DNA of 64,000 bases, from NCBI GenBank assembly GCA_045541795.1, contig JAZQJV010000018.1:197134-261133 (forward strand), given 5' to 3'. Position 1 is the stretch's first letter. Every line of letters starts with the position of its first letter. The position numbers and the translations under genes are program-made. Below are positions 3,001 through 63,473 of this stretch, in pieces. Below the pieces are notes generated by a model. That model searched no databases and was not told where the DNA came from. It saw only the letters and a program-made list of their open reading frames with translations. The DNA comes from Patescibacteria group bacterium. Its GTDB lineage: Bacteria; Patescibacteriota; Microgenomatia; UBA1400; PJMF01.

Positions 3001-4045
3001 AAGTCATTTTAGCCTGCTCCAGTGGTTGGGGCTGCTGGCCAGCCTGACGATAATATCTGCTTTGATCGTGTGTTGGCAGATAAGCTCGACTTACCGCAGT
3101 TTTTTGCAGCAAAGCGGACTTTCTGGTGATCAGCTGTGGTCACTGATACGCCAAGCCGCGCTCACAAGCACCCTCAACCAAGACGGCCAGACGAGCCTCT
3201 TACTTCTGGGGACAGACGAGCTCGAGACGCGCCCGGGTAATTGGCCGCTTACAGACACCATGATGCTGATCAAAGCTCAGCCTGAGTTTAGCAACATCAC
3301 TCTGCTTTCGCTGCCGCGCGACTTAGTCTTGCCCGGGGACAAAAACAGAATTAACGCGATATATCCCATATTTTATCAAGAATCAACTCAAACGGCTGGG
3401 CTGGCGACTGCTCAGTATTTATCCAGCCGGCTGGATATACCCATCCATTATCAGGTAGTAGTCACGATGCGTGACGTCGCTGATTTCATTGATCTGGTGG
3501 GCGGGGTGGACGTGGAAATTGCCCGTTCGTTTATTGATTACCAGTATCCACGTGACGACGTGGACGTCACCACGGTGCGCGATCCCCAGCTGCTTTATGA
3601 GACGGTGGAATTTACTGCCGGCCCGGCGCATTTAGATGGGCCGACGGCGCTCAAATTTATGCGCTCGCGCCACGCTCAAAATGAAGAAGGCTCTGATTTT
3701 GCCCGCGCGACGCGTCAGCGGCAAGTCATTGAAGCGCTCGCCAGCAAACTTGGCGCGCGCTTTCGTGATGATCTGCGCCGTTATGATTTGCGCTTACTGG
3801 GTGAGTGTTACCAATTTTACAATGATCGTTTTGCTGATCAATTACCATTTACACACGCACTCGCACTGGCTTTAGACTTTCTCTCGCGTGAACGGCTACC
3901 ACAAGTATCCAGTGGACGCTTGAGCGTCGATGAGCCTGGCAGCGTCTTACATGAAAACAAGCGCGATTTCACGATTCAAGCAGACAGTCTGGAGGCACTG
4001 CGCGCGGCCGTGCGTCGTGAGCTTAAGTGGGGCAGTGGCGAGTAA
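2951..4045 (+). CDS. LytR-CpsA-Psr (LCP) family cell-envelope polymer transferase
   Basis: N-terminal TM helix, then LLLLGTDE..R...DTMML, LSLPRD, GGVDV and FMRSRHA...G.D..R..RQRQV motifs typical of the LCP domain. Confidence 0.75.
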   Translation: MMTVWRKLMFAPRWTYKSHFSLLQWLGLLASLTIISALIVCWQISSTYRSFLQQSGLSGDQLWSLIRQAALTSTLNQDGQTSLLLLGTDELETRPGNWPLTDTMMLIKAQPEFSNITLLSLPRDLVLPGDKNRINAIYPIFYQESTQTAGLATAQYLSSRLDIPIHYQVVVTMRDVADFIDLVGGVDVEIARSFIDYQYPRDDVDVTTVRDPQLLYETVEFTAGPAHLDGPTALKFMRSRHAQNEEGSDFARATRQRQVIEALASKLGARFRDDLRRYDLRLLGECYQFYNDRFADQLPFTHALALALDFLSRERLPQVSSGRLSVDEPGSVLHENKRDFTIQADSLEALRAAVRRELKWGSGE

Positions 4046-5050: not shown

Positions 5051-6361
5051 ATGATACAAAAAAGCGCCACCGGAAAAGAAATGATTGCCGCAGTTGATCT
5101 CGGCTCCAGTCATACTGTCACCCTAATTGCTAGTCGGGAAGCTGACGGCAATTTTAAAATCGTGGGCATTGGTGATGTCCCTTCGGTTGGCATCCGCCGG
5201 GCCAATATCGTCAACCTCGAGCAAGCCACCCAGACTCTCGAGCGCTCCGTGGCTATGGCTGAGCAAATGTGTGGCAATAATGTCGATAAAGTTTATGTCA
5301 ACGTTTCTGGCGCTCATATTGGTTATCGTAATTCCAACGGCGTGGTGGTCGTGGCGAGTGATGACGGCATTGAAGAATCTGACATTGACCGCGCCATCGA
5401 ATCCGCGCGCGCCATTAATCTTCCCGCTGACCAAGAAGTGCTCACTGTCACGCCTCGCACCTACAAAGTTGATGATCAAGAAGGTATCCTTGATCCATTA
5501 GGCATGGTCGGTCAGCGCCTAGAAGTCGAAATTCACATGATTACTGCTTCCTCCGCTGTGCTGCGCAACCTCGAAAAAGCCCTGGCTACGATCGGCTTAG
5601 AAAAGGAATCATTTGTTTTTGGCGGCTATGCCGCCAGCGAAGTCGTCATTGATGACAACGAAAAAAATGCCGGTGTCATTTGCATTGATATTGGCGCGGA
5701 TACGACCAGCTATTGCGTTTATCTTGACGGTGCGATCCAGCTTTCGGGCGTGGTGCCGATCGGCAGCCGCTACGTGTCGCAAGACATTAACGCCTACACC
5801 CGCGTCGGTTTAGACAAAGCAGAACGCATCAAACTTGATTTATCCAAAGACGCCAGCGAGCCCATCAAACAGCGTGAAGGCGAGACCCGTGAAGAATTCC
5901 GCCGCCGTTACAAAGCGGCCGATATATTTGACCTCACTAAATACGATCCCGGCGTCAAACCAGCGACCGTTTCCAAAGCCATGCTCGTGCGCACCGTCAT
6001 CGGCGCTAGACATCGGGAGATTTTTAGTCTCATCGCTGATGACCTCAAAAAAAATAAAATCGCCGACAAACTGGGCGCCGGTGCTGTCCTCGTTGGTGGC
6101 GGGGCCAAAGCCATTGGCGTGGGTGAAGTGGCCATGCAAACCCTCGGGATGCAAGTGCGCCTCGGTGTACCGCGTGGTATTGATGGCGTCATCCGTCACC
6201 TTGATGATCCGATTTATGCTACAGTGATCGGTTTGCTGCGCTATGCCAACCATGAACAGGCAGCAGCGCCCATCAGTGATCCTGCAGCCAGCGCCAAGCA
6301 AAGTAATCTGCCCAGTTTTATTAATGAAGTGGCGAGGAAATTTAAAAAATGGATGCCGTAG
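5051..6361 (+). CDS. ftsA: Cell division protein FtsA
   Basis: Actin-like ATPase; N-terminal AAVDLGSSHT; correct length; directly upstream of ftsZ. Confidence 0.85.
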   Translation: MIQKSATGKEMIAAVDLGSSHTVTLIASREADGNFKIVGIGDVPSVGIRRANIVNLEQATQTLERSVAMAEQMCGNNVDKVYVNVSGAHIGYRNSNGVVVVASDDGIEESDIDRAIESARAINLPADQEVLTVTPRTYKVDDQEGILDPLGMVGQRLEVEIHMITASSAVLRNLEKALATIGLEKESFVFGGYAASEVVIDDNEKNAGVICIDIGADTTSYCVYLDGAIQLSGVVPIGSRYVSQDINAYTRVGLDKAERIKLDLSKDASEPIKQREGETREEFRRRYKAADIFDLTKYDPGVKPATVSKAMLVRTVIGARHREIFSLIADDLKKNKIADKLGAGAVLVGGGAKAIGVGEVAMQTLGMQVRLGVPRGIDGVIRHLDDPIYATVIGLLRYANHEQAAAPISDPAASAKQSNLPSFINEVARKFKKWMP

Positions 6362-26404: not shown

Positions 26405-27769
26405 ATGTATAGCAAATTTTTGGGGCGTTTGTTCCTCACGGCTAGTTTCATCCCGCTGGCCGTGGGGCGTGCTGCCGCCGCCTCCAGCACTACCACCACG
26501 ATGAAACTGATAGACACCCCGCTGGCTGCAGTGGTGGGTACGGGGGGACGCGTCAATCTCATCCGCACGGCAGATAACACTTGGCAAGCCACGGATAACT
26601 CCAACTGCCCAGACGGCGCTGCTTATCCCAACGGCACTGCTCACTGTTTTGCCGCCAAAGGTGATTACACCGCCGCCCAGGTCTATCAGTACTCCTGCCG
26701 CAAGCACACCTGCTCAGCCGATACCGTGTGGAATCCCGCCTCAGGCACCTGTATCCCGATCGTGGATTACGGCTGTACCCACACCAATAACTTCATGACA
26801 CTGCAAGACTGGGACGGCTGTAGTGCTCTGGCCACACCGGCCGCCGGCGGCAATAATTACACCGCTGGGCCGTGCTTGATCGACAATCGCGACGGCAAGA
26901 CGTACAATGTCCGCAAATTTGCCGACGGCAAATGCTGGCTGGCCAACAACTTGAAGTTTGGCGGCGATTATCACTACTGGCACAATATCAAAGGTCAGTC
27001 AGCTGATACCTGCGCGCTGCGGCTGGGCAGTAAGTGGCAGTCTGGCGGCTTCAACAATCTCTATACCAATCAGTCTGCGGCCAAGCCGCCCACCAATCGC
27101 TTCTGGCAAGGCTCTTACGGCGACTGCGTCTATCCGTACTCATCCACCTCTAGTAGTGATGCCAGCAATAAATACGGCTATCTTTACAACTGGATGGCAG
27201 CCGTACAGTCTCCTTGCGGCTGGTATAGTCAAGAATGTGATCCTGACGCCATGGCGACCAATACCGACGGCAAAGGCACCTACGGGACGCAAAAAATCCA
27301 AGGCATTTGTCCGGAAGGCTGGCATCTGCCCACGGGCGGTACTGGTGGCGAGTTTAATATCCTCACTGACCGGGTTGCTGGTATCACTGGTGGCAGTAGT
27401 CACTTGGCCGATGAGTCCAATACTGCCGGCGGTTGTTATACCAAAGGTAATACTACCTGTGGTATTTGGTCTGATACTAGCCGCAATGGTGGTAACGGTA
27501 GTTACGTTTTAACTTTCTTCAACCCTGGAGGAGGTTTTAATACTACTTATGCCGGCCGTACCAATTACATTGGTGAGTCTGGGGCTACAGAAACTACTGC
27601 CGTCGGCCTGATCTACCAGGGGTCGAACGCGCGCTATTGGTCCTCTACTGCTAGGTCTACTACCAACGCCTACGGCTTGGACGTGTACAGCTCGGGCGTG
27701 AGACCCCTAGGCTACCATCCGGGCGACAGCAAGTACTACGGCTTTTCGGTTCGCTGCGTGCTGGATTAG
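26405..27769 (+). CDS. Secreted Fibrobacter-succinogenes-major-paralogous (FISUMP/DUF1566-like) domain protein; DGR variable (target) protein
   Basis: Signal peptide. Motifs DNRDGKTYNVRKFADGKCWLANNL, YGYLYNWMAA, CPEGWHLPT and GFSVRCV match TIGR02145-type domains. The C-terminal 58 codons form the VR. Confidence 0.8.
   Translation: MYSKFLGRLFLTASFIPLAVGRAAAASSTTTTMKLIDTPLAAVVGTGGRVNLIRTADNTWQATDNSNCPDGAAYPNGTAHCFAAKGDYTAAQVYQYSCRKHTCSADTVWNPASGTCIPIVDYGCTHTNNFMTLQDWDGCSALATPAAGGNNYTAGPCLIDNRDGKTYNVRKFADGKCWLANNLKFGGDYHYWHNIKGQSADTCALRLGSKWQSGGFNNLYTNQSAAKPPTNRFWQGSYGDCVYPYSSTSSSDASNKYGYLYNWMAAVQSPCGWYSQECDPDAMATNTDGKGTYGTQKIQGICPEGWHLPTGGTGGEFNILTDRVAGITGGSSHLADESNTAGGCYTKGNTTCGIWSDTSRNGGNGSYVLTFFNPGGGFNTTYAGRTNYIGESGATETTAVGLIYQGSNARYWSSTARSTTNAYGLDVYSSGVRPLGYHPGDSKYYGFSVRCVLD
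27588..27764 (+). repeat. DGR variable repeat (VR) at the 3-prime end of the target gene
   Basis: About 175 bp matching TR (30483-30655). It differs at 18 positions, every one an adenine in TR. Confidence 0.9.
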
Positions 27770-27781
27770 GTTTCCGGTTTG

Positions 27782-27866
27782 GGGCGCGGCTGTGGACCCA
27801 CGACCGGCGGAGCTTATGCGCAGCCGAGGCGGCAGCTTGCTGCCAGCCACAGTGGGGACCGGCCGC
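27782..27866 (+). promoter_or_regulatory. GC-rich inverted-repeat/hairpin structure immediately 3-prime of VR (DGR homing-associated structure)
   Basis: ggcgcggctgtgg...ccacagtgggg...gccgcgcc imperfect long stem plus inner perfect hairpin GGCAGCTTGCTGCC. Confidence 0.6.
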
Positions 27867-27959
27867 GCCGGCCACCAAAAAAGTAGCTTGAGCAATAAAA
27901 ATTAATTAGAAAAAATTATAAATTATAAAGTAAATCAAACATCAAAAAAAAGGAATATT

Positions 27960-28946
27960 ATGACGACAAACTCCAAAAAAGCACCCATCAAAAATCAGGC
28001 CGCGCCGGCCAGCAACTCTGGCGTCGCCAAAAAAATCACCAGTGCGGGCGGCGAGCAAAGTGATCTTTTTGCCGGCATGGCTCTGCCGGAGGCGGCCAAA
28101 AAAGCCGAAGCTCGGGTCTTCAAGGTGGGCCTGAGTGCCAAAGAAAAAAAGACCGCCGCCAAAATCAAGGAAATCCGCAACCGCGACCACAAAATCGGCC
28201 TGATTGACGAGTGGATCGAGGCCGAAGACGCCAATTTTGACACGATCATCCTTCACAAAGAGTACGATATGTTTGTGGCTTTCAACCAAAGCGCTTATCA
28301 GCTGCGCGTCAAACTCCATCCTGGCCTCAAGCTCTACTTACAGCTCAACAAATACCGCCCCGAAGCCTTACGGGTGGCCTTGGGCAAAAATCAGCTGATA
28401 GACATCCGCCTGGCGGCCGAGGAAGCGGGCTTACAGATGCAAGAGTTCAAGGATGACAACCAAGAAGTGCAGACTATCATCATCTCCGGCCTCGCCACCA
28501 TCACCAGTGAAGAATTTAATAACTGGAAAGCCTCATACATTGCCAATATCGAAAAAGCCCAAGCTACCATCAAACCATTTTACGGCGACCTCAATATTTA
28601 CAAAAGTCTCATGGATCTATCCGTGATGGAAATGCACGCCGTGGGTAATTTCCCGCGTCACATCCGTGAGGTGATCGGCCCACAATTACTCTCACTAGTC
28701 ACGGCGGCCATCGCTCTCATCCGTGATGCCACCCTCAAAAAAGAAGACGAGCTGCCGCTGCCGCGCAAAATCGCTGTGGTGATGGAGCTGGAGAAAAATA
28801 TTGATCAGCAGGGATTTTTGCTACAGACATCTCTCAATCTCCAGGTGCTCAATACCGATAGCTTTGCCCGGCTCGCCAGTGTCATGGGTGAGCTCATCCA
28901 TCAGCTCACAGCCTGGAAATTATCCCTCAAAAAGAAACGGGCATAA
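27960..28946 (+). CDS. DGR accessory protein (328 aa; basic N-terminus, helical C-terminal region possibly Avd-like)
   Basis: Sits between VR and RT in the position usually occupied by avd, but is about 2.5 times longer than a canonical Avd. No recognisable enzymatic motif. Confidence 0.5.
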   Translation: MTTNSKKAPIKNQAAPASNSGVAKKITSAGGEQSDLFAGMALPEAAKKAEARVFKVGLSAKEKKTAAKIKEIRNRDHKIGLIDEWIEAEDANFDTIILHKEYDMFVAFNQSAYQLRVKLHPGLKLYLQLNKYRPEALRVALGKNQLIDIRLAAEEAGLQMQEFKDDNQEVQTIIISGLATITSEEFNNWKASYIANIEKAQATIKPFYGDLNIYKSLMDLSVMEMHAVGNFPRHIREVIGPQLLSLVTAAIALIRDATLKKEDELPLPRKIAVVMELEKNIDQQGFLLQTSLNLQVLNTDSFARLASVMGELIHQLTAWKLSLKKKRA

Positions 28947-28973: not shown

Positions 28974-30227
28974 TTGAATGGTATCATGATCGTCGATCAA
29001 GGTGAAGTCTGGTTTGAAAGCCGCCGTCAGCAATATGTAGACAGTAATGACTGGCAGCTTTATGAGCGCCTCCTGACAGCTTATTTTGACGCCCGTCGCC
29101 ACAAACGCTCTACCAATAATCAGCTGGCATTTGAAATTGATTTGCTTCATCACGTCCAAGAACTATACGACGCCATCCATGATCGTCACTATACCCTCGA
29201 GCCTGGCATTGCTTTTGTGGTAGACGACCCCAAGCCACGCGAGATTTTGGCCGCCTCTTTCCGCGATCGGGTCGTCCATCATTTTGTCTGCAGTCTCATG
29301 ACACCGTACTGGGAGCCGCGTTTTATCGCCGACTCATATTCTTGCCGGGTGGGCAAAGGTACGCACTACGCGATCGCCCGGGCCCACAAGCACGCCCAGC
29401 GCCTCACGCACAATTACCGCGATGAAGCCTGGGTACTCAAACTCGATCTCAAGTGTTATTTTATGTACATTGACAAAGCCGTCTTGTGGGAGCTGATCCA
29501 GCCGATGTTTACGGCTGATGAGGATGCGCTCGCGGCCGGGCGCATCAGTGAGGAAGAGGCCCGCTATCATCTGGTACGCGGTTTTAATGACTATTTTGCG
29601 GCTGTTTTGGAATATTTGTTGCGGATCATTATTTTTTCCTGCCCGATGCTGAGCGTCCAGCTGCGGGGCAGACTTGATCGCTGGACGCTCCTTCCTGCCG
29701 AAAAAACCCTATTTATCGCGCCTTTTTGGCGCGGTTTTCCAATTGGTAATCTCACCAGTCAGCTGTTTTCCAATATTTATCTGCATGCTTTGGACTGTTT
29801 TATCAAATATCGGCTAGGCTTTACTCACTACGGCCGCTACGTAGACGATTTATACATGATGGATACGGATAAAACCCGCCTTAAGCGCGCCCGCACGGCT
29901 ATCGGTAAGTTTTTGGCCGACACACTTCATTTGCGCCTTCATCCTACCAAGGTGATTTTACAGCCCGTCAAGTACGGCTTTCCTTTTGTTGGTGGGGTAG
30001 TGCGTCCGCACTCCTGCGTGCCTACTCGCCGTTTCCAAAAACGCTACCAAAAATTTATGACCGGCCACTCTGCCCGGCATTACACCGAGTATCAGCGCTC
30101 CCGCATCGCTAGTTACCAAGGTCATGATACCAAGATCCGCCATCTGCCCGAGCCCAAGCGCACGCTCACACAAAAAAGGCTCAAAAGACTAGCCGACCAG
30201 CAGCAAGCGTGTATTTATCACCGCTAA
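28974..30227 (+). CDS. Diversity-generating retroelement reverse transcriptase
   Basis: RT motifs FRDRVVHH (1/2), SYSCRVGKGTHYA (3), LDLKCYFMYI (A), DGR-specific IGNLTSQLFSNIYL (motif 4, 29742-29762) and YVDD (29838-29849). Confidence 0.85.
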   Translation: MNGIMIVDQGEVWFESRRQQYVDSNDWQLYERLLTAYFDARRHKRSTNNQLAFEIDLLHHVQELYDAIHDRHYTLEPGIAFVVDDPKPREILAASFRDRVVHHFVCSLMTPYWEPRFIADSYSCRVGKGTHYAIARAHKHAQRLTHNYRDEAWVLKLDLKCYFMYIDKAVLWELIQPMFTADEDALAAGRISEEEARYHLVRGFNDYFAAVLEYLLRIIIFSCPMLSVQLRGRLDRWTLLPAEKTLFIAPFWRGFPIGNLTSQLFSNIYLHALDCFIKYRLGFTHYGRYVDDLYMMDTDKTRLKRARTAIGKFLADTLHLRLHPTKVILQPVKYGFPFVGGVVRPHSCVPTRRFQKRYQKFMTGHSARHYTEYQRSRIASYQGHDTKIRHLPEPKRTLTQKRLKRLADQQQACIYHR

Positions 30228-30482: not shown

Positions 30483-30655
30483 AAAAAACTGCCGTCGGCC
30501 TGATCAACCAGGGGTCGAACGCGAACTATTGGTCCTCTACTGCTAGGTCTACTACCAACGCCTACAACTTGAACGTGAACAGCTCGAACGTGAAACCCCT
30601 AGGCAACAATCCGGGCAACAACAAGTACTACGGCTTTTCGGTTCGCTGCAATGCT
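30483..30655 (+). repeat. DGR template repeat (TR)
   Basis: Non-coding copy of VR lying 255 bp downstream of the RT gene. Rich in AAC codons in the VR frame (aac x10, aat x2, aaa x1 at variable sites). Confidence 0.9.
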
Positions 30656-30728: not shown

Positions 30729-31216
30729 AACGCACATCTAAATCGTAGCAAAGAGGATTTTGAAGTTCGGTGTAGATTCAATCTCCTACTGCTAATTAGA
30801 AATCGAGCTTACGTAGATTTCTTCTTACCGTACGTAAGGTTCTGTAACAGCGTGTGGAGTCCAACGTCAAGCGCTTGGATGCGACCTGGTATCGGTTTCA
30901 TGTCTTCAGTCTTTCTCTTTCTTGTCTGAGGTTTCTTGCTGCCGGTAGTGGTGGGGTTGAATTGCGGATGCATTTGGGAAGCGAACTCACACCCGCTCGC
31001 ACACGCTCGCGCGGGCAGCACGCCGTTTGCAGGATAATTGCAGAAGAAATTAATTTTCCAGGCGTCATGCATATTTTCCGGGGGAAGAGACGAGCAAACT
31101 GCCGTTGGTGACCAAAAGGAGTTTTCATCCGAACTTTTAGACCTTTTAAATCACGATCATGACGTTATCGCTCGTGAGTATTATACCATGAAAAAGTTGC
31201 TTGATGAGATTAAAAA

Positions 31217-32350
31217 TCAAGGTAGGTCTAGGTGAGCAATAATTTCCTCCTCACTTGGCAAAACATTTTGTAGGCTGTAGGTCGAAATGCCGACTGGTTG
31301 CCCACTTTTCTCGACTGTCCACTGGGCAACGACACTGTTTTTCTCTTTACAGATTAAAAGTCCGATAGTCTGCTTGTCCTGAGGAGTTTTGATCAGATGA
31401 TCGACGGCATTACAATAGAAATTTAATTTGCTGACAAATTCCGGTTGGAATTTTACTACTTTGAGTTCCACCACGATAAAACGTCGCAGTTTATAGTGAT
31501 AAAACAGTAGATCAGGGGCATACTCGTCGCCATTTACAACTAGCGGTACTTGCCTGCCCACATAAGCAAAGCCCGTGCCGAGTGTGAGTAAAAATTGCGT
31601 AAGATTGTTTTCAATTGCCTGCTGTAGGTCTTTTTCTTGATAATTTCTTCTCAAAGTCAGAAAATCTAATTTGTAATTATCTCGCAGAATTTCCCGAGCC
31701 AAATCACCCTCTGTCTTGGGTAGTGTAAGGGAGAAATTGTTGATTGTCTTGCCTCTTGTCTGGTAAAGTTTGGTATCAAGCATATTAAGCAGTGTTGCTC
31801 GACTCCAGTTGTTTTCTCTTACCTGAGCAATAAAAAACAATGCCTCATTCAGTGATTTGACTTTGGTAAAAATTTCGATGTGATGCCGCCATGGGATAGT
31901 AAAGATAATGTCTAAATGTTCATCTTTCCAATGGTCAATAGACGCTGTCTGCGATTCTGCATCAGGCTGGTGCAAAATTAAACCCATGGTAGATTCGTCA
32001 CCGAGTTGGTGACGACTTGGCAAACCCTTGAACTCTGCACCAAGTTGGTGCAGAATTGGGCTGTAGAACTCGTAAAACCGTTTCATATAGCGGATATTTC
32101 TTGCAGAGAAACCTTGTGCATCAGGAAATTCCACTTTAAGATCACGACTTAAATTATCGTAAAAACGACTGCCGTATTTGTTGTCAAACTGCTTAGTAGT
32201 AATATCTCTCCCTATCCGCCAGTAAAGTCGCAGCATCTGTTCATTAACAGCAATACTGGCTTTGATTTGAGTGTGAGCAATGTCCTTCTTGAGCGTTGAT
32301 AACCAGTGAACGTATTCTTGATTTTTGCTCGCCAATAATTCACTAGACAT
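31217..32350 (-). CDS. YhcG-like PDDEXK-fold nuclease (DUF1016 family)
   Basis: N-terminal DUF1016 region and C-terminal PD-(D/E)xK-like core (APDLLFYHYKLRRFIVVELKVVKFQPEFVSKLNFY). Confidence 0.65.
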   Translation of the reverse strand: MSSELLASKNQEYVHWLSTLKKDIAHTQIKASIAVNEQMLRLYWRIGRDITTKQFDNKYGSRFYDNLSRDLKVEFPDAQGFSARNIRYMKRFYEFYSPILHQLGAEFKGLPSRHQLGDESTMGLILHQPDAESQTASIDHWKDEHLDIIFTIPWRHHIEIFTKVKSLNEALFFIAQVRENNWSRATLLNMLDTKLYQTRGKTINNFSLTLPKTEGDLAREILRDNYKLDFLTLRRNYQEKDLQQAIENNLTQFLLTLGTGFAYVGRQVPLVVNGDEYAPDLLFYHYKLRRFIVVELKVVKFQPEFVSKLNFYCNAVDHLIKTPQDKQTIGLLICKEKNSVVAQWTVEKSGQPVGISTYSLQNVLPSEEEIIAHLDLP

Positions 32351-32456
32351 ATCAGACTTTCTTTTTTATACTTATAATTTACCATAAATAGTGCAAAATG
32401 TCAAATTTTCGTGCAACCTCAGTATATTTCGGAATAAAAATTCCTATCAAACAAAG

Positions 32457-33551
32457 CTATCTAAACTGACCGTTACAATAGTGATCTATTAAAATTCTTC
32501 TGTCAATTGAATCAGTCACTTCGTTATCAATAAATTGTGCACAACTAATGTCTGTTGATTCATGCAATAAAAACTCTGTAAATATCTTGAGAACAGTTTT
32601 TATTTCGCCTGTTTGATTATTTACTGTAAAACTCACACTATAACAATGTCCCATGCAGATATCACTAAAGGGGTTAATTGATGCATCAAATCTCTCAATG
32701 TGATTAGCGTGATCTTCGTCCGTGCTGATATCAGTGATACTTCTAATATGAATGTTTGATAAAGGATAGCTATATTCTTGTTTATCGAAATATTCATCAA
32801 CCGTACCATTAGTTTTTTGCGTGGCGGCGATCAATGAATTTCTTTGTTTTTCTTCAACTTCTTCAAACTCGTCCAGCATGCCCAATTCCCTTAAAGCTAC
32901 AGCATTTGCGTCAAATATTTGCATGTCTGAGTAATAGTATGTCAAAGAATATACTTTGCCGTCATATATGTATAATGCCAATCTATCTCCTTCTTCTATT
33001 CCACCAAAAGGATTACTTAATTGTCTGGTTTGATCTTCGATAAATCCTAACAACAATAGAGCTTTTTTGGCTTGTTCATAATAGAGTTCCATATTATCTT
33101 GATTAACTTCAATTATCCAATAGGCCAAATCGTGATCAGAACCAAAAGAATGTCTAAATTGTGGGCCACTCATAGTTAAAACAGGTTCTAGCGATTTTAA
33201 CCTCCACCAAGTATCGATGCCAACGCCATGCCAGCCTTTGGATTGGCCATATTCCCATCCATCATATAAAAGAAGATATTTTGAAATCTTTTGATTCAGT
33301 TGTGAAGAGCTTTGATTTGCACCCTCTAAATCATCATTTTTTTCTTTCAAATTAGTCAATTCATTTTCGCCAATATTGTCTAATTCCAAATCATGGTCGG
33401 ATGTCTCTTGTAAAGAATTTTTGTCTGACTTTTCTATGGTGAAATTTAAGTACATAGCTATCACAGTCAATATACATAACACTGCTAAAACAAATATAAC
33501 TATCCTTTTGTAAAAAGGCTCTATTGCAGTAGCTTTGTTATTATTTGGCAT
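32457..33551 (-). CDS. Hypothetical membrane-anchored acidic protein (364 aa) in AT-rich DNA
   Basis: Single N-terminal TM then an acidic soluble domain. Local GC is clearly lower than the surroundings. Same strand as yhcG, 106 bp upstream of it. Confidence 0.45.
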   Translation of the reverse strand: MPNNNKATAIEPFYKRIVIFVLAVLCILTVIAMYLNFTIEKSDKNSLQETSDHDLELDNIGENELTNLKEKNDDLEGANQSSSQLNQKISKYLLLYDGWEYGQSKGWHGVGIDTWWRLKSLEPVLTMSGPQFRHSFGSDHDLAYWIIEVNQDNMELYYEQAKKALLLLGFIEDQTRQLSNPFGGIEEGDRLALYIYDGKVYSLTYYYSDMQIFDANAVALRELGMLDEFEEVEEKQRNSLIAATQKTNGTVDEYFDKQEYSYPLSNIHIRSITDISTDEDHANHIERFDASINPFSDICMGHCYSVSFTVNNQTGEIKTVLKIFTEFLLHESTDISCAQFIDNEVTDSIDRRILIDHYCNGQFR

Positions 33552-33628
33552 ATCTGCATTATTACATCACGTTTATATTTCTTATTAATCAAGATTATTC
33601 ACGATTGCGACGAGAAAGACCCTTTTTG

Positions 33629-33702
33629 TGACCCCAAAGGGATTCGAACCCTTGATTTTTTGGATGAGAACCAAATGTCCTGGACCGCTAGACGATGGGG
33701 CC
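33629..33702 (-). tRNA. tRNA-Glu (anticodon CTC)
   Basis: Acceptor GGCCCCA/TGGGGTC. Anticodon stem TTTGG/CCAAA with loop TTCTCAT. T-arm GGGTTCGAATCCC. Confidence 0.8.
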
Positions 33703-56823: not shown

Positions 56824-59800
56824 ATGAAAACGAAATTTAGCCAATTATTACTAAAAATTAGCCCCCTGATGCTGGTTTGCTGCCTCACGCTGCTGTCTGT
56901 CAGCCGCGCGCAGGCCAAAATGTGTTCTTTTAGCGTGGAGGAAGGCGCTACACCCGCTGTCGCCGATAGACGGCTTTATTGGTACAAGAGCGAAAAAGGC
57001 CTCCCGGATGAATACATCCATGACTATGAGCTGACTTATCTCGGGGAAAATGATCCCTGCCCTACGGCCGAATACGACGGCGAGTCAGGACGCATCTTAA
57101 TGAGACCCGACGAAAATTACGCTCCCATGGATCTACTCATACCAGCCCTGGCCGCTCTTGAAGCCCAAGATGCCGACGGTAATCATACCGAATCCCGTGG
57201 TCAGGAGTGGCCGTGGAAGGATTCTGGCACCTACGTGCGCATCGAAGGGCTCTATGACCAAAGTGTCATCCCTTGCGGTACGGCCGTCGGCGACCAGTGT
57301 GACTGGGACTGGGGTATCAATAAAATCACTTATACTTACAAAGGCACTTACAAAGTCGATGCCCAATACGAAATGATGGTGCAGTTGACCAATACCAGCG
57401 GCTACGCCGGGCCAAATTTTTACATCGACAGCTATGACCAAGCTGCCAAAACCATCACCATGTCTCCCGACTGGCGTGGCAGTGAGCACTACTATACCAA
57501 TCCTCACTACGCCCTGGGTGCGCTTTCTGGCGCCTACAAGTACTTAACGGCGCACGACTACTCGGCACAAGGCGAAGTCACCTTTATTCTCGATACCGCC
57601 TATTCATACCCTTACGTACCGATCAAATCCATTACCTACAAAGACGGCAAGCTTAGTAGTGACGTTTTTGTCAGTAGTGTCAGCAATGTCAAGACGATTA
57701 GCTTTGATGAGTTTGACTATGACGGCTACTCGCCAGTGACACGTGTCGCCAGTTATAATCCCGGCTCAATTCCTACCTACTACTACGACCAATCAGTTTA
57801 CCCATACGTCCGCCGCACACTCACTCTCCAAGCCGCCACCAATTCAAGCCTCGAGGCTGCCACCGGTTTGATGGCCATCATGTATGACATTTATGGCAAC
57901 AACACCCCAGCCGAGATTTACTTCACTGGCGAAAGCTTCGCCAAAGCCACCATGAGCATTGTTGGCCAAGAAACATATTACGCCTATCACTTCCCCGATG
58001 ACAGCACTATTAACGGCACCGATATCTTCAATCTCTCTGCCCTCCACCAGGTAGATGCTACCCATTACACGGCTGTCTTTAATGATCAAGCCACACTAGA
58101 TGAAGGCATGATTTTTGCCTTGATGAATCAAGGAAAAGTGTTTGACATCACTTTTGAAGATCCGGCCATGCCTGGCACATTAAATTTTGAAGATGGCGCA
58201 TTTACCTTAAGTTTCGCCGATGCTGAGCTGGCTGGCAGCGATCTCGCGGCAAAAATCACCTCGCTCGAGGCCATTCTCAATGGTGAAAAGATGCAGCCCG
58301 ACCAAACCGCAGTCGACGTTTACGAGCTCGCCAACGACTGGCTGATCAATGTCGACGGATCCGACATCACCTATTTAAATTTCTACCTCGAGACGCCCTA
58401 TTTTGGCCGGCTCATGACGATTGATCTCGAGGACGAATCAATAAATGTCGACTATACTGACTATGTACTTGCCCCAGGTACTTCTGCCAGCGATGCTGCC
58501 ATTATCTACATGCAACTGATTGGTCAATATCTGGACGATGAACCAGAAACATTTGACGATAAAGGCGTCGCCGCCGACTCTATCGACGAACCTATCAACC
58601 GGATTTATTACGACGCGGACTCCGCGCGTACGAAGGCGATCCTCATGGGTAATTCCACCTTTGCTGACGGGCTTAATATCGCCTCGCTCATCACAAACGG
58701 CGTCGAGGTCAACTACCAAGTCGGCCACCCGCTCTCCATCATCACCCATGTCTATGACGAATTTGACGTCATCCTCAGTGAAAACGCCACCCAAGCCTGG
58801 CTGCGGGAGCACTTAGCCGAGCTTACCGGTTTCCCCGGCATCGGCGTGTACACTGGTGACGTCATGGATGGCCCCGTCCACCAGCTTGGTGACATTCTTT
58901 TTGCCGGCACGGATGAGCAAGGCAACCTCGCCCTTGATTATTACGCCTCAGACGAAATTGATGTCTACATTGACCAGGCGGAAAGTAGTATCATTCATGA
59001 CGCCAGCGCCAGCAGCGAAGCGGCTTTAGTCAAAGAAGTCGGCCTCGTGGCAGATCTAGTCGCGCATCTTGGCCTTGACGAGCAAGTAAATATCACGGTC
59101 GGCACTACCCCAGGCGCCGCTGTAGCCACCATTGACGCTCTCCAAGGCAAAGCCGCCAGCGGACAAATTGTCCTCCACGTCACTGATCATACCGGCACTT
59201 ACGGCACTTTCTCCGTCCTGCAGATGCCCGAGCTGCAAGAGCAAACCAGCTCCTGTGGCCGTGACGGCGTCCCATACTGCGCTCACCCAGACACTTACGC
59301 CGGCAAAACGCTCATTTTTACCAATGATCTTGCACCCGCCACCATCCAGCAGCTGGCCGCTAGCGTCCACTCAGATAAAAATTACTTAGTGATGGCGCAG
59401 TCTACCAGCCAACCGGCGCAGACCGCCTCCCTCTGGAGCAAGCTCATCAAGCAGGCCTATGCCGCCAGTACCAATTACTATCTGCTCGAGTATGACGCCA
59501 GCAATCAGCTTCAATCCCTTGGCGTCACCACTCTTGACGACTCCATGCAAGCCATCATTGACAGCTGGCGTCAAGTTGCCGGTGACTTTACCCTGCGCTT
59601 GCTAAACGAGCAGGCCATCAGCGAAGCTACCCTCATTTACCTGGCCACCACCAGTGACACCGCTTTTGCCGATGTCATCAACTACGTGGCCACAAACGCC
59701 GCCGACGGCCTCAATGCCGAGATCTACGGCCAAGACTTTGCCATCCTCGTGATCGCCGGTAAAGTGACTCAGGTCAATTTCACCGAAACGACTACAAGAG

Positions 59801-60435
59801 AAGAGGTCGAAGCCGCCATTGCCGGTACTAAGGGGCAGTTTACCGTCAATTTTGGTTCCGTCACCATGCTTGCCAGAGATGGCGTCCTTTTTGAGATCAA
59901 AACGATCTCTCTTGAGCCAGGATTAAGCGCCCCGCAAAGCCGCAATGTGCCCAGCAATGCCCGCCCGCAAGGCTGCGATGCGTCTATCCCTGTGGGCAAG
60001 GCAGATCTTTTCCAGATCGACCGCCAGGCGGACAAAGCCACGCTCTATTTCACGCCCGTGCGTGACAACACCGATCGTTACCACGTGATGTTTGGCTACG
60101 CCGAAGGCGATGAACGCTTCTCTGGTGTCGCCCTCCAAGTGACCGCCGAGCAAAACAACGGTGTCTTGGCGCTTGACATCACCAATCTTGACCCACGCCA
60201 GGTCTATTCCTTCAAAGTCGCACCTGTGCACGAGTGTGCCGTAGGAGTGTGGTCCAATTGGCTGACAGCTGCACCCACCAGCGCCTCACGAGTCACGCAT
60301 ACCTACCGCTACTACTCTCAAGAGACTAAGCCTGCTGCCTACCAGCCCGCCTCAAGCACTACAGTCGAGAGCCCTACTCAGCGCACCACCCAAATCGTCA
60401 CCGCTAAATACTCTCAGGTGACCCGCAAAAAATAA
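56824..60435 (+). CDS. Giant secreted/surface protein (1203 aa) with C-terminal FN3-like module
   Basis: Signal peptide, acidic repetitive body, then a C-terminal 170-aa module shared with the downstream paralog (LDITNLDPRQVYSFKVAPVHECAVGVWSNW, FN3-like). Terminator at 60463-60486. Confidence 0.7.
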   Translation: MKTKFSQLLLKISPLMLVCCLTLLSVSRAQAKMCSFSVEEGATPAVADRRLYWYKSEKGLPDEYIHDYELTYLGENDPCPTAEYDGESGRILMRPDENYAPMDLLIPALAALEAQDADGNHTESRGQEWPWKDSGTYVRIEGLYDQSVIPCGTAVGDQCDWDWGINKITYTYKGTYKVDAQYEMMVQLTNTSGYAGPNFYIDSYDQAAKTITMSPDWRGSEHYYTNPHYALGALSGAYKYLTAHDYSAQGEVTFILDTAYSYPYVPIKSITYKDGKLSSDVFVSSVSNVKTISFDEFDYDGYSPVTRVASYNPGSIPTYYYDQSVYPYVRRTLTLQAATNSSLEAATGLMAIMYDIYGNNTPAEIYFTGESFAKATMSIVGQETYYAYHFPDDSTINGTDIFNLSALHQVDATHYTAVFNDQATLDEGMIFALMNQGKVFDITFEDPAMPGTLNFEDGAFTLSFADAELAGSDLAAKITSLEAILNGEKMQPDQTAVDVYELANDWLINVDGSDITYLNFYLETPYFGRLMTIDLEDESINVDYTDYVLAPGTSASDAAIIYMQLIGQYLDDEPETFDDKGVAADSIDEPINRIYYDADSARTKAILMGNSTFADGLNIASLITNGVEVNYQVGHPLSIITHVYDEFDVILSENATQAWLREHLAELTGFPGIGVYTGDVMDGPVHQLGDILFAGTDEQGNLALDYYASDEIDVYIDQAESSIIHDASASSEAALVKEVGLVADLVAHLGLDEQVNITVGTTPGAAVATIDALQGKAASGQIVLHVTDHTGTYGTFSVLQMPELQEQTSSCGRDGVPYCAHPDTYAGKTLIFTNDLAPATIQQLAASVHSDKNYLVMAQSTSQPAQTASLWSKLIKQAYAASTNYYLLEYDASNQLQSLGVTTLDDSMQAIIDSWRQVAGDFTLRLLNEQAISEATLIYLATTSDTAFADVINYVATNAADGLNAEIYGQDFAILVIAGKVTQVNFTETTTREEVEAAIAGTKGQFTVNFGSVTMLARDGVLFEIKTISLEPGLSAPQSRNVPSNARPQGCDASIPVGKADLFQIDRQADKATLYFTPVRDNTDRYHVMFGYAEGDERFSGVALQVTAEQNNGVLALDITNLDPRQVYSFKVAPVHECAVGVWSNWLTAAPTSASRVTHTYRYYSQETKPAAYQPASSTTVESPTQRTTQIVTAKYSQVTRKK

Positions 60436-60647: not shown

Positions 60648-63473
60648 ATGACAACAAATTTCAAAGCAAAACTGACAAAATTACTATTCACAAGTTTTAC
60701 TGTCCTTGCACTCGCCGTGACCACTGGAAAATACGAGGCTGTCAATGCCCAAGCCAGTCCGCAAACACTCACCCTTGATCTCTATCAGCTGTACGCCTGT
60801 AATGAACTAAGCGATACTACTGCTTGCAGCGAACTGAGTACCTGGGCAGCTAATTTGGCCGCTCTTGATGTCAGCCAACCGCTCGGCATCCAGCTGACAG
60901 CCTCAGCTAATGACAATTTACAAACGGTGACGTTGGCCGATGCATTGGCGCTTCTTGACGATGACAGCAATTTTGATCTCAAGGCCTGGGCGAATCAGCT
61001 TACCTTGAGTCTTGATAACGAGGCCATGGATTTTTTAAACCTGCAAATTTATGACTTTTACCAAAGCACCAGCCCTGTAACCTATGAGTTTATCAGTTAC
61101 GAGTATAATACACAAACCCGCTATGCCCTCCAGGCCAACGTGCGGATTTATACCGCGCAAGAGTTAGTAGAAAATGCTTACCCTGACCAAACAGAGATTT
61201 TTTCCAATGTCGCCACTGACCTGCGCGATCAATTACAAAATTATACCGGCACCAATTTAGAGGAAATAGACATTAGTGTGCAAAATGATGAAGCCCTCCT
61301 GATCACCGCTGTAGATGGAGACTTACATGAACTCACGATTACCAGCCATGACATTGCCACCGCCACGCCGTACATTGCTATCTTTGCCATGATGGGTGAC
61401 TTTGCCGAAATTGTGGATGAAAACGGCGATCAGCTCGCTCTGGCACATTATCCCGCCGACAGCGTGCTTTGGATTGCTGTAGATGACTACAACACGCTCA
61501 TTGACCTGACTTCCAGTGAGCAGGGGATGGGAGAGCTTGCCTTTAACGTCACCACGACCAATAATATCGTCAATTTACAGACACTCATAGAAGATCCAGA
61601 TACCGGCGAATACAATTATGATTTTGATTACATTGAAACGACTACCGCCGGCGGTGACGGCAACACGGTGCAAATTGACCTTGTCCAGCTCGACCGCACA
61701 CAGTTCGCGCCACAAGGCGCTGTCAACTTGATCAATTATATCGCCGCCAATGCTCTGCTGCAAGACAGCAATCCTGACGTCGATCTACTGGACCTAGACG
61801 CCGTGGCGCTGACGGTCACATTGGATGAAAACGTCACTGCCAGTGTCAGCTATGACCAGCAGGAGCAGCAACCCGTCCTCGCCCTCGGGGATGACACTGC
61901 GGCGGCCATCCTCATGCTTTCCGGAAGCCTCGATGAAAGCATCCGCGCCCTCAATCTACCTGAGAGCAACCTGCAAATCACGGGGTCATTATCAAGCGTT
62001 AATTACGACATTGAAGTCAAGGTTGACGCCAGTGGGGAGGTAAGCACCTACACGAGCGTGAACACGAGTGAAACCATTGATCCAGACACTCAAGCCGCCA
62101 TCATCGCTGATCTTATTACCACCGGCGGTGACATTACCATCACCACTCCCGAGGGCGAGCTCGCCATACTCACTGTCACCGACGAGCAAACGGCGCAAAA
62201 GAGACTTTACTATTTCGCCGCCAAGGCTGGCCAAAGCCTCACGACAACTGCTGATATCCTGACTGTGGCCAAGCTCACCCGCGATATTATTGCGGTCGTC
62301 CCTGCTGACATCAACAGTGTCTATGTTGGCCTGAGTGACGGCATGCAAGAACTTGAGTCTATCTCCACCTTGGCGGAAAACGGCCAGATTAAAACTGTCA
62401 GCTATAACGCACTCACCGTCAGTACTGATAGTGAAGCACTCAAGGAGTTGTTGCCAGCAGTCGCCTCTCAGACTCCGGCAGCGGCCAGTATCAGTATCCA
62501 CGCTACACGAAGCAGTGATGAGACCAAAACCCTGTCTATTTTTGGCATTACCAGCCCGAGCGCCGACGTTTTTGCCACCGTCAAGCAGGCGATCAGTGAA
62601 GACTCCACCGCTATCGTCCAGTTGCTCGCCCTCGAAAGTGTCAGCGGGCAAATGCACACTGCCAGAAGTAGCGACAACATCGTCTCGGCAACGATTAACA
62701 CCATCACGCGCCTTGAAGATGATCAGCTGACCTTATCGATTACCGGCACTGACTTCACGATCAATATCAAAAACGGCGCTATTTATGCCGTCATCTTCAC
62801 CGCCACCACTACCCGGGAGCAAGTCGAGAGTGCCATTGCTGGCTCTCAAGGACAGTTTATGGTCTATTTTGGCTCTACTTACATGCTGGCCCGAGACGAC
62901 AAACTTTACGAGATCGCCACCCCAGCCAACGATCAGCCAGCTGCACCCACCTCAGATCCTAATGACCGCCACGCCAGCAGCCGCAACGTCCCCAACAACG
63001 CCCGGCCTCAAGGCTGTGACGCCTCCTTACCAATCGGCCAAGCAGATCTTTTCCAAATCGACCGCCAGGCAGACAAGGCGACGCTCTATTTCACGCCCGT
63101 GCGTGACAACACTGACCGTTACCACGTGATGTTTGGCTACAGCGAGGGTGACGAGCGGTTCTCTGGCATCGCCCTCCAGGTCAGCAGTGAGCAAAACAAC
63201 GGCGTCCTGGCTCTCGACATCACCAATCTCGACCCCCGCCTGACGTATTCCTTCAAGGTTGCCCCCGTGCATGACTGCGCCGTGGGTACGTGGTCAGCGT
63301 GGCTGACGGCTGGTCCTACTACCACTTCTCGTGTCAGCCACACTTATCGTTATGCTAATGAGCCGGTAAAATCACCTAGTTTGCCTACCTCGAGTCTCAC
63401 TACAAAAGCGGGCAGTGAGGGCAGTGTGCAAATCGTCACTGCCAAATACTCACCCGTTACCCGCCAGCACTAA
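60648..63473 (+). CDS. Giant secreted/surface protein paralog (941 aa) with the same C-terminal FN3-like module
   Basis: Signal peptide and acidic repetitive body. The C-terminal 170 aa are about 85% identical to the 56824-60435 product. Terminator at 63504-63528. Confidence 0.7.
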   Translation: MTTNFKAKLTKLLFTSFTVLALAVTTGKYEAVNAQASPQTLTLDLYQLYACNELSDTTACSELSTWAANLAALDVSQPLGIQLTASANDNLQTVTLADALALLDDDSNFDLKAWANQLTLSLDNEAMDFLNLQIYDFYQSTSPVTYEFISYEYNTQTRYALQANVRIYTAQELVENAYPDQTEIFSNVATDLRDQLQNYTGTNLEEIDISVQNDEALLITAVDGDLHELTITSHDIATATPYIAIFAMMGDFAEIVDENGDQLALAHYPADSVLWIAVDDYNTLIDLTSSEQGMGELAFNVTTTNNIVNLQTLIEDPDTGEYNYDFDYIETTTAGGDGNTVQIDLVQLDRTQFAPQGAVNLINYIAANALLQDSNPDVDLLDLDAVALTVTLDENVTASVSYDQQEQQPVLALGDDTAAAILMLSGSLDESIRALNLPESNLQITGSLSSVNYDIEVKVDASGEVSTYTSVNTSETIDPDTQAAIIADLITTGGDITITTPEGELAILTVTDEQTAQKRLYYFAAKAGQSLTTTADILTVAKLTRDIIAVVPADINSVYVGLSDGMQELESISTLAENGQIKTVSYNALTVSTDSEALKELLPAVASQTPAAASISIHATRSSDETKTLSIFGITSPSADVFATVKQAISEDSTAIVQLLALESVSGQMHTARSSDNIVSATINTITRLEDDQLTLSITGTDFTINIKNGAIYAVIFTATTTREQVESAIAGSQGQFMVYFGSTYMLARDDKLYEIATPANDQPAAPTSDPNDRHASSRNVPNNARPQGCDASLPIGQADLFQIDRQADKATLYFTPVRDNTDRYHVMFGYSEGDERFSGIALQVSSEQNNGVLALDITNLDPRLTYSFKVAPVHDCAVGTWSAWLTAGPTTTSRVSHTYRYANEPVKSPSLPTSSLTTKAGSEGSVQIVTAKYSPVTRQH

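Follow-up and report, generated by a model that had tools for sequence, protein, structure and literature searches.

A probable three-part accessory gene, joining MSL-type and Avd-type domains, in a diversity-generating retroelement of a Patescibacteria group bacterium

The stretch of DNA analysed here in its entirety, 'the window', consists of 64,000 nucleotides from a Patescibacteria group bacterium (assembly GCA_045541795.1, contig JAZQJV010000018.1, positions 197,134 to 261,133 of the forward strand). It contains a diversity-generating retroelement (DGR) and, between the variable repeat (VR) and the reverse transcriptase (RT) gene of that element, an open reading frame (ORF) on the plus strand which begins with ATG and encodes 328 amino acids (27960-28946). 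This ORF quite likely is a three-part DGR accessory gene, encoding in order a basic tail, a domain of the MSL (MutS-like) type, and a four-helix bundle of the bAvd type. As judged from sequence, msl and avd are two adjacent genes in distant Bacteroidales DGRs, and they are one gene in the window as well as in a small related clade. The domain architecture, the homologies, and a conserved position 5' of the RT gene are established by the comparisons described below. A first-pass annotation, made from the letters of the window, had pointed to an oversized accessory gene in this position, one whose N-terminus is basic and rich in Lys and Ala, whose C-terminal half is helical, and in which no enzymatic motif is to be seen, and in all of these respects it proved accurate: ORF, DGR, and family are confirmed, and searches of Pfam and NCBIfam assign the whole 328-residue protein to no family and reveal in it no enzymatic motif.

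The retroelement itself is a genuine DGR. Two direct repeats of 167 nucleotides, 90% identical, are found at the 3' end of the target gene (VR; 27591-27757, plus strand) and 3' of the RT gene (30483-30649, plus strand), and in pairwise comparison each of their 16 differences coincides with an adenine in the downstream one. It is for this reason that the downstream copy is taken to be the template repeat (TR), and for this reason as well that the DGR is regarded as genuine. The target gene (26405-27769, plus strand) encodes 454 amino acids, with VR carried by a C-terminal FISUMP, i.e., Fib_succ_major, domain (Pfam PF09603, E 2e-12; NCBIfam TIGR02145, E 4e-21). The RT gene, which is also on the plus strand and which ends at 30227, encodes either 413 amino acids from an ATG at 28986, the start used by a 98%-identical protein (P0001), or instead 417 amino acids from an alternative TTG at 28974. 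Its product matches Pfam RVT_1 (E 7.5e-11) and PHROG 1423 (E 8e-82), and has 7032 homologues at E <= 1e-30, many of them encoded beside FISUMP-type targets; a scan of genome contigs with the RT as query gave no matches. The cassette thus runs, in order, from target gene with VR to accessory gene, RT, and TR, and this arrangement, with TR after RT, is shared by a 98%-identical locus (L001). Tight packing of accessory gene and RT, with a gap of 27 nucleotides, had been claimed at first pass; the gap has that length if the RT starts at the TTG, and is 39 nucleotides if it starts at the ATG.

The accessory ORF is, by sequence comparison, a real gene and not a chance ORF, because a homologous family exists of which each examined member occupies the equivalent genomic position. 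With the single protein as query, 5.8 billion proteins searched by word index returned nothing, and searches of PDB sequences with the protein, a family profile, or a profile of the N-domain returned no meaningful matches. It was HMMER, run exhaustively over 1.84 billion sequences that each represent a cluster at 50% identity, that brought the family to light, with 21 proteins recovered at E <= 1e-3, including 13 at E <= 1e-10. Nearly all of these are 210-309 residues in length and align to query residues ~83-325, and two blocks are conserved among them, one N-terminal (I-x-L-Y-x(4)-F-x-x-A-Y-E-x-S-A-Y-L-L ... L-R-V-G-F-P-x-x-S-L-x-K-V ... W) and one C-terminal (P-F-Y-G-x-L-P-V-Y-K-x-x-Y-D-L ... 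F-L-L-R-L-A-F-D-Q). An opposite-strand ORF that overlaps the start of the gene (27942-28319, 125 amino acids) is rejected as spurious because it is the plus-strand frame that is conserved as a protein family.

In all 11 of the loci examined, i.e., the window, L001, L002, L003, L006, L008, L009, L014, L015, L070, and L071 (with L004 and L005 near-identical to L003, and L010 and L011 to L009), the fused gene lies directly 5' of the RT gene, and the gene upstream of it, where visible, usually is a FISUMP-domain target. In three of them (L003, L006, L009) the stop of the fused gene overlaps the start of the RT gene by 4 nucleotides. This co-occurrence with DGR RTs, proposed at first pass as a check, bears on the idea that the ORF is instead an unrelated chromosomal or housekeeping gene which by chance has come to lie between VR and RT. 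The DGR indeed is chromosomal, sitting among pgm, efp, coaE, and tgt, which speaks for such a gene. The gene nevertheless possesses Avd homology, holds its place beside RT throughout the related loci, and in some overlaps RT, and searches of Pfam and NCBIfam provide no match to a housekeeping family. A housekeeping origin is, with synteny and homology together, refuted, and we consider it next to inconceivable. Of the two outcomes named at first pass as refuting an accessory role, i.e., homology to a housekeeping protein and absence of the gene from syntenic DGR loci, neither was obtained in the loci examined.

The C-terminal third of the protein, residues ~205-328 (28572-28946 on the plus strand, stop codon included), is, from sequence and modelling, a predicted bAvd-type four-helix bundle. 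Residues 209-326 match PHROG 3206 ("Avd protein of DGR") at E 1.1e-4, and Pfam bAvd (PF22296) is matched by 16 of 22 family members, at best with E 2e-9. An AlphaFold 2 (AF2) model from the family alignment, which is the model used here, has a mean predicted local distance difference test score (pLDDT) of 81.9 and exceeds 90 over most of residues 80-328 (single-sequence AF2 gave a pLDDT of 40). Within that model a bundle of four helices, of ~110 residues, can be superposed on bAvd. Foldseek searches with it return 4dwl, 8ub7, and 2gsc, with TM-scores of 0.86-0.89 as normalised to target, and the fold matches in BFVD are phage Avd-like proteins. A hidden Markov model (HMM) of the family's C-domain, furthermore, matches three stand-alone Bacteroidales Avds at 63-74 bits, and does not match the small proteins encoded next to them. 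The earlier suggestion, in which an Avd-like core, a four-helix bundle in the C-terminal half, is preceded by an N-terminal extension, is in this manner upheld.

Likeness to solved Avds is a matter of fold rather than of close sequence similarity, i.e., 10-12% identity. The bAvd of Bordetella phage BPP-1 (PF22296; 4dwl, 8ub7) is a stand-alone protein of 128 amino acids (PMC5758913), whereas in the window the bundle is but the C-terminal third of 328. bAvd is known as a basic pentameric barrel which binds RT and which is required for mutagenic retrohoming (PMC5758913). The window bundle, mildly basic itself (net +2, pI 9.1), is as with bAvd encoded within a DGR cassette beside RT, and assembly as a pentamer and binding to RT would be predicted for it by analogy. 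The 23S rRNA intervening-sequence proteins (PF05635; 2gsc, 2rld), which share the fold, also are stand-alone, and with these linkage to a DGR is not obligatory.

Residues 78-204 (28191-28571, plus strand) are modelled, with pLDDT of ~85-97, as an alpha/beta domain plus connecting helix, with elements in the order helix, b-b-a-b-b-a-b-b, helix, an order that would fit MutS domain I. The domain is acidic (pI 4.9). Its identification comes by way of relatives in which the genes are split. Closest RT relatives with a readable neighbourhood, at 43-50% identity, carry the fusion, and Bacteroidales RTs at 40-46% identity, i.e., P0041 (Dysgonomonas), P0115 (Bacteroides), and P0022 (with an Mfa2-pilus target), carry instead two small genes 5' of TR and RT. 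The second of these small genes encodes a bAvd of 114-123 amino acids. The first encodes an unannotated protein of 151, 169, or 207 amino acids (L012_151, L013_169, and L072_207, respectively; genes at L012 2698-3153, L013 2673-3182, and L072 2546-3169), in each case immediately 5' of the stand-alone bAvd gene. It is these first proteins, and not the Avds, that the HMM of the fused family's N-domain matches, with 46-53 bits (46.5 for L012_151).

One of those avd-upstream proteins, L012_151, passes the gathering threshold of Pfam MutS_I (24.6 versus 20.6 bits, E 3e-5), and it is on this basis that residues 78-204 are called MSL. The tie of the window domain to MutS_I is, that is, a transitive one, going from N-domain HMM to L012_151 and from there to Pfam. 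For seven other relatives MutS_I is the recurrent and often the sole match, though sub-threshold (E 9e-4 to 0.12), and the matches share a single register, with protein residues ~5-75 against model positions ~6-73. MSL accessory proteins have been described as having lengths of 112-283 amino acids and as occurring always with avd, as separate genes (Wu et al. 2018, PMC5758913), and pilus-targeting Bacteroides DGRs encode both Avd and Msl (10.1101/2024.11.15.621889). Published MSLs thus are products of genes that are separate from an equally separate avd, as is so too for the split pairs of L012, L013, and L072, whereas in the window both would reside within one polypeptide of 328 residues, with MSL preceding Avd in the fusion just as msl precedes avd among the split genes. 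Residues 78-204 consequently are viewed, with reasonable confidence for the three-part reading as a whole, as the known MSL accessory of DGRs. Stand-alone MSLs also possess ~45-100 additional C-terminal residues which are absent from the fusion, where Avd is found in that place; speculatively, this additional segment might dock on Avd when the genes are split.

Residues 1-77 (27960-28190, plus strand) make up the basic tail, with 16 Lys plus Arg and 15 Ala, a pI of 10.2, and a net charge of +8.6. By prediction it is for the most part disordered, with pLDDT below 50 at residues 4-42 and disorder in the model reaching to about residue 42, beyond which it is helical at low to moderate confidence. 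Whether the tail is made at all is a question of which start is used, and the length of 328 could in part be an artefact should translation begin internally, at ATG codon 40 or GTG codon 56, giving what would then be an ordinary member of the fused family of ~250-290 residues. Most family members indeed begin, in alignment, near window residue 76-80, and the tail is missing from most homologues. No counterpart of like length or charge was seen among the relatives found, the nearest of them, L001, being cut at residue 82, and a metagenome scan with the window protein gave no matches, hence no further close relative for comparison of the tail. Both internal starts lack, however, a Shine-Dalgarno-like motif, the sole such motif being an AAGGA which ends 7 nucleotides 5' of ATG 27960, following an AT-rich intergenic stretch. 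Since no in-frame start occurs between codons 57 and 103, there would be, with any start, at least 22 extra residues ahead of the domain. GC content at third codon positions (GC3) is 0.65 in the tail and 0.63 in the rest of the gene, and three relatives (P0125, P0127, P0134) have N-terminal extensions as well, shorter and unrelated ones. From the start motif, the lack of starts in codons 57 to 103, and the similar GC3 we infer that the tail is translated from ATG 27960, and an internal start we judge to be unlikely. The tail-coding stretch sits roughly where relatives carry TR. The notion that it is a degenerate TR was rejected, with matches to TR consisting of just 7-9 nucleotides, as expected of chance.

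Various points weigh against the reading of the gene as tail, MSL, and Avd. The tail has no conserved counterpart, which makes its translation a presumption. With regard to the bundle, every bAvd match of the fused family falls under the gathering score, the best reaching 38.3 of 40 bits. Other points concern the middle domain. Neither the window protein nor its isolated segment 78-204 has a direct match to Pfam, and the window N-domain is the most divergent of the family, reading RVALG where the others have RVGFP, and H and M at the positions of the conserved W and F. When aligned by hhalign to residues 1-126 of E. coli MutS (sequence as checked against 1e3m), the profile of the N-domain scores weakly (P 0.01-0.035), profile searches of PDB sequences found no MutS chain, and searches with the full model listed helical-bundle matches only. 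Helix bundles filled those lists, and the MutS-I fold of the N-domain is therefore a putative one. The literature consulted contains, in addition, no demonstrated function of MSL in any DGR, and what is proposed below as mechanism extends, as conjecture, past domain identity.

From these same observations it might be argued that the protein is instead a long Avd with a lineage-specific N-terminal alpha/beta domain that has no relation to MutS, one with a role in, for example, oligomerisation or RT docking, and that the MutS_I matches are due to chance. Direct profile-to-MutS statistics are not significant, PDB searches offer no MutS, and but one relative rises above the Pfam threshold. The Phe-X-Glu motif of MutS, too, is incompletely represented, as the column of Glu38 is variable across the family. 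Chance matches would not be expected, though, to have MutS_I as best or sole Pfam match in eight independent relatives, and in one register throughout, nor to have both MAFFT and hhalign align the family's conserved Phe with Phe36, and its GFP with the GIP, of MutS. The stand-alone counterparts, moreover, have in published work already been classed as MutS-like, and even if unrelated to MutS the domain would remain the accessory known from DGRs at the place of MSL. A middle domain unrelated to MutS therefore is improbable in our estimation, and the MSL assignment is retained. The Phe36 column is kept in most family members but is occupied by Met104 in the window protein, and with the Glu not kept either, canonical MutS-style mismatch reading by the MSL domain is unlikely. 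MutS, besides its domain I (PF01624; 1e3m), to which the fused family's N-domain bears a weak if register-consistent similarity, has connector, core, clamp, and ABC ATPase domains; the window protein, as searched against Pfam and NCBIfam, lacks these and ends after the Avd bundle.

How such a protein might act may be considered from the perspective of its better-understood part. The Avd bundle would oligomerise and would bind both RT and TR-containing RNA, and would in this way permit cDNA synthesis with mutagenesis at adenines, in the manner of the Bordetella phage DGR. Through fusion there would be one MSL domain per Avd protomer, and with one MSL on each protomer it follows that MSL would act as a part of the RT-Avd ribonucleoprotein and not on its own. 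Fusion, that is, suggests that MSL and Avd work as one physical complex. MSL probably would contact nucleic acid at the stage of cDNA or of cDNA:VR heteroduplex, and the basic tail could add non-specific affinity for nucleic acid. In one strain of Bacteroides, host MutS has been found to suppress mutagenesis by a DGR 5-10 fold (10.1101/2024.11.15.621889), and it is this suppression which makes masking of a mismatched intermediate an attractive role for MSL, i.e., MSL could keep host MutS off of a heavily mismatched intermediate. In a stronger form, the fusion may be viewed as a 'Rosetta stone' that identifies MSL as a subunit physically built into the Avd-RT ribonucleoprotein, with a ring of degenerate MutS domains shielding the cDNA:VR heteroduplex from host MutS. 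This stronger form we offer tentatively, as a conjecture that may well be wrong. Were the assembly pentameric, as with bAvd, then the ring would hold five MSL domains, and were the conjecture true, then the ring would be a built-in anti-mismatch-repair device.

The claim of a new accessory architecture stands in part. The novelty lies in the joining of two accessories, each known before, along with the basic tail, and this is no new class of accessory protein, since the extension is MSL, known already as a separate gene. No description of an MSL-Avd fusion was found in the searchable literature, with the longest MSL of Wu et al. (283 amino acids) possibly such a fusion. As a sequence-level argument for joint action of MSL and Avd the fusion would be the first, and it offers a single-polypeptide system with which MSL action within the Avd-RT complex might be studied. 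The DGR puzzles upon which it touches are the replacement of VR by mutagenised cDNA, the escape of the intermediate from mismatch repair, and the role of MSL. There is a practical consequence as well, as detectors of Avd that expect proteins of ~120 residues will miss or mislabel fused genes; one member of the fused family is annotated merely as "four helix bundle protein".

The fusion constitutes a small, rare family, with sources that are mostly ruminant-gut metagenomes and metagenome-assembled genomes. A scan of 185,579 species genomes with a 10-sequence alignment gave 41 loci, full length in 2 and with the Avd part alone in the other 39. The loci on viral contigs were Avd-only in 14 of 14 cases, as was the one locus that a metagenome scan with the alignment recovered.

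The position of TR varies among these cassettes. The window and L001 have the order VR, fused gene, RT, TR, while L003 (TR at 5757-5941), L009 (4754-4940), and L070 (3065-3249) have VR, TR, fused gene, RT, and Bacteroidales L012 (3737-3941) has VR, msl, avd, TR, RT. Accompanying the order with TR after RT is a longer RT, 413-417 amino acids in the window versus 350-366 for the fused-gene-adjacent RTs of L003, L006, L009, and L014, with the excess length apparently a basic C-terminal extension. In the L012 (Dysgonomonas) locus a called gene of 130 amino acids between avd and RT (3619-4011) overlaps TR and is probably an annotation artefact; its match to Fib_succ_major is due solely to TR being a copy of the target's VR. 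In L070, two tandem FISUMP-domain genes (565+ and 460 amino acids; 1-2667) precede the fused gene and have several repeats in common, with a VR that pairs with TR solely in the proximal one.

About 70 nucleotides 3' of VR in the window is a GC-rich hairpin (27828-27848; 8-bp stem with one bulge, loop CTTG). It sits in a GC-rich stretch (27770-27878) after which the sequence is AT-rich up to the accessory gene, and it may match the hairpin known 3' of VR in other DGRs; the fold of the whole hairpin region was not significantly better than that of shuffled sequences (z -1.76). Farther away, two long plus-strand ORFs at 56824-60435 (1203 amino acids) and 60648-63473 (941 amino acids) have no NCBIfam match at E <= 1e-5. 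Compared with L001, to which it is 96-98% identical, the window also has an insertion of 2.54 kb (31087-33627) between the TR side of the DGR and the tRNA and tgt genes, abutting a tRNA gene (33629-33702). On the minus strand the insertion carries a gene for a YhcG/DUF1016 PD-(D/E)XK nuclease (31217-32350) as well as an ORF of 364 amino acids that belongs to no family and is rich in AT (32457-33551; local GC 0.376 versus ~0.50 elsewhere), and it has the appearance of a small islet, mobile or defensive.
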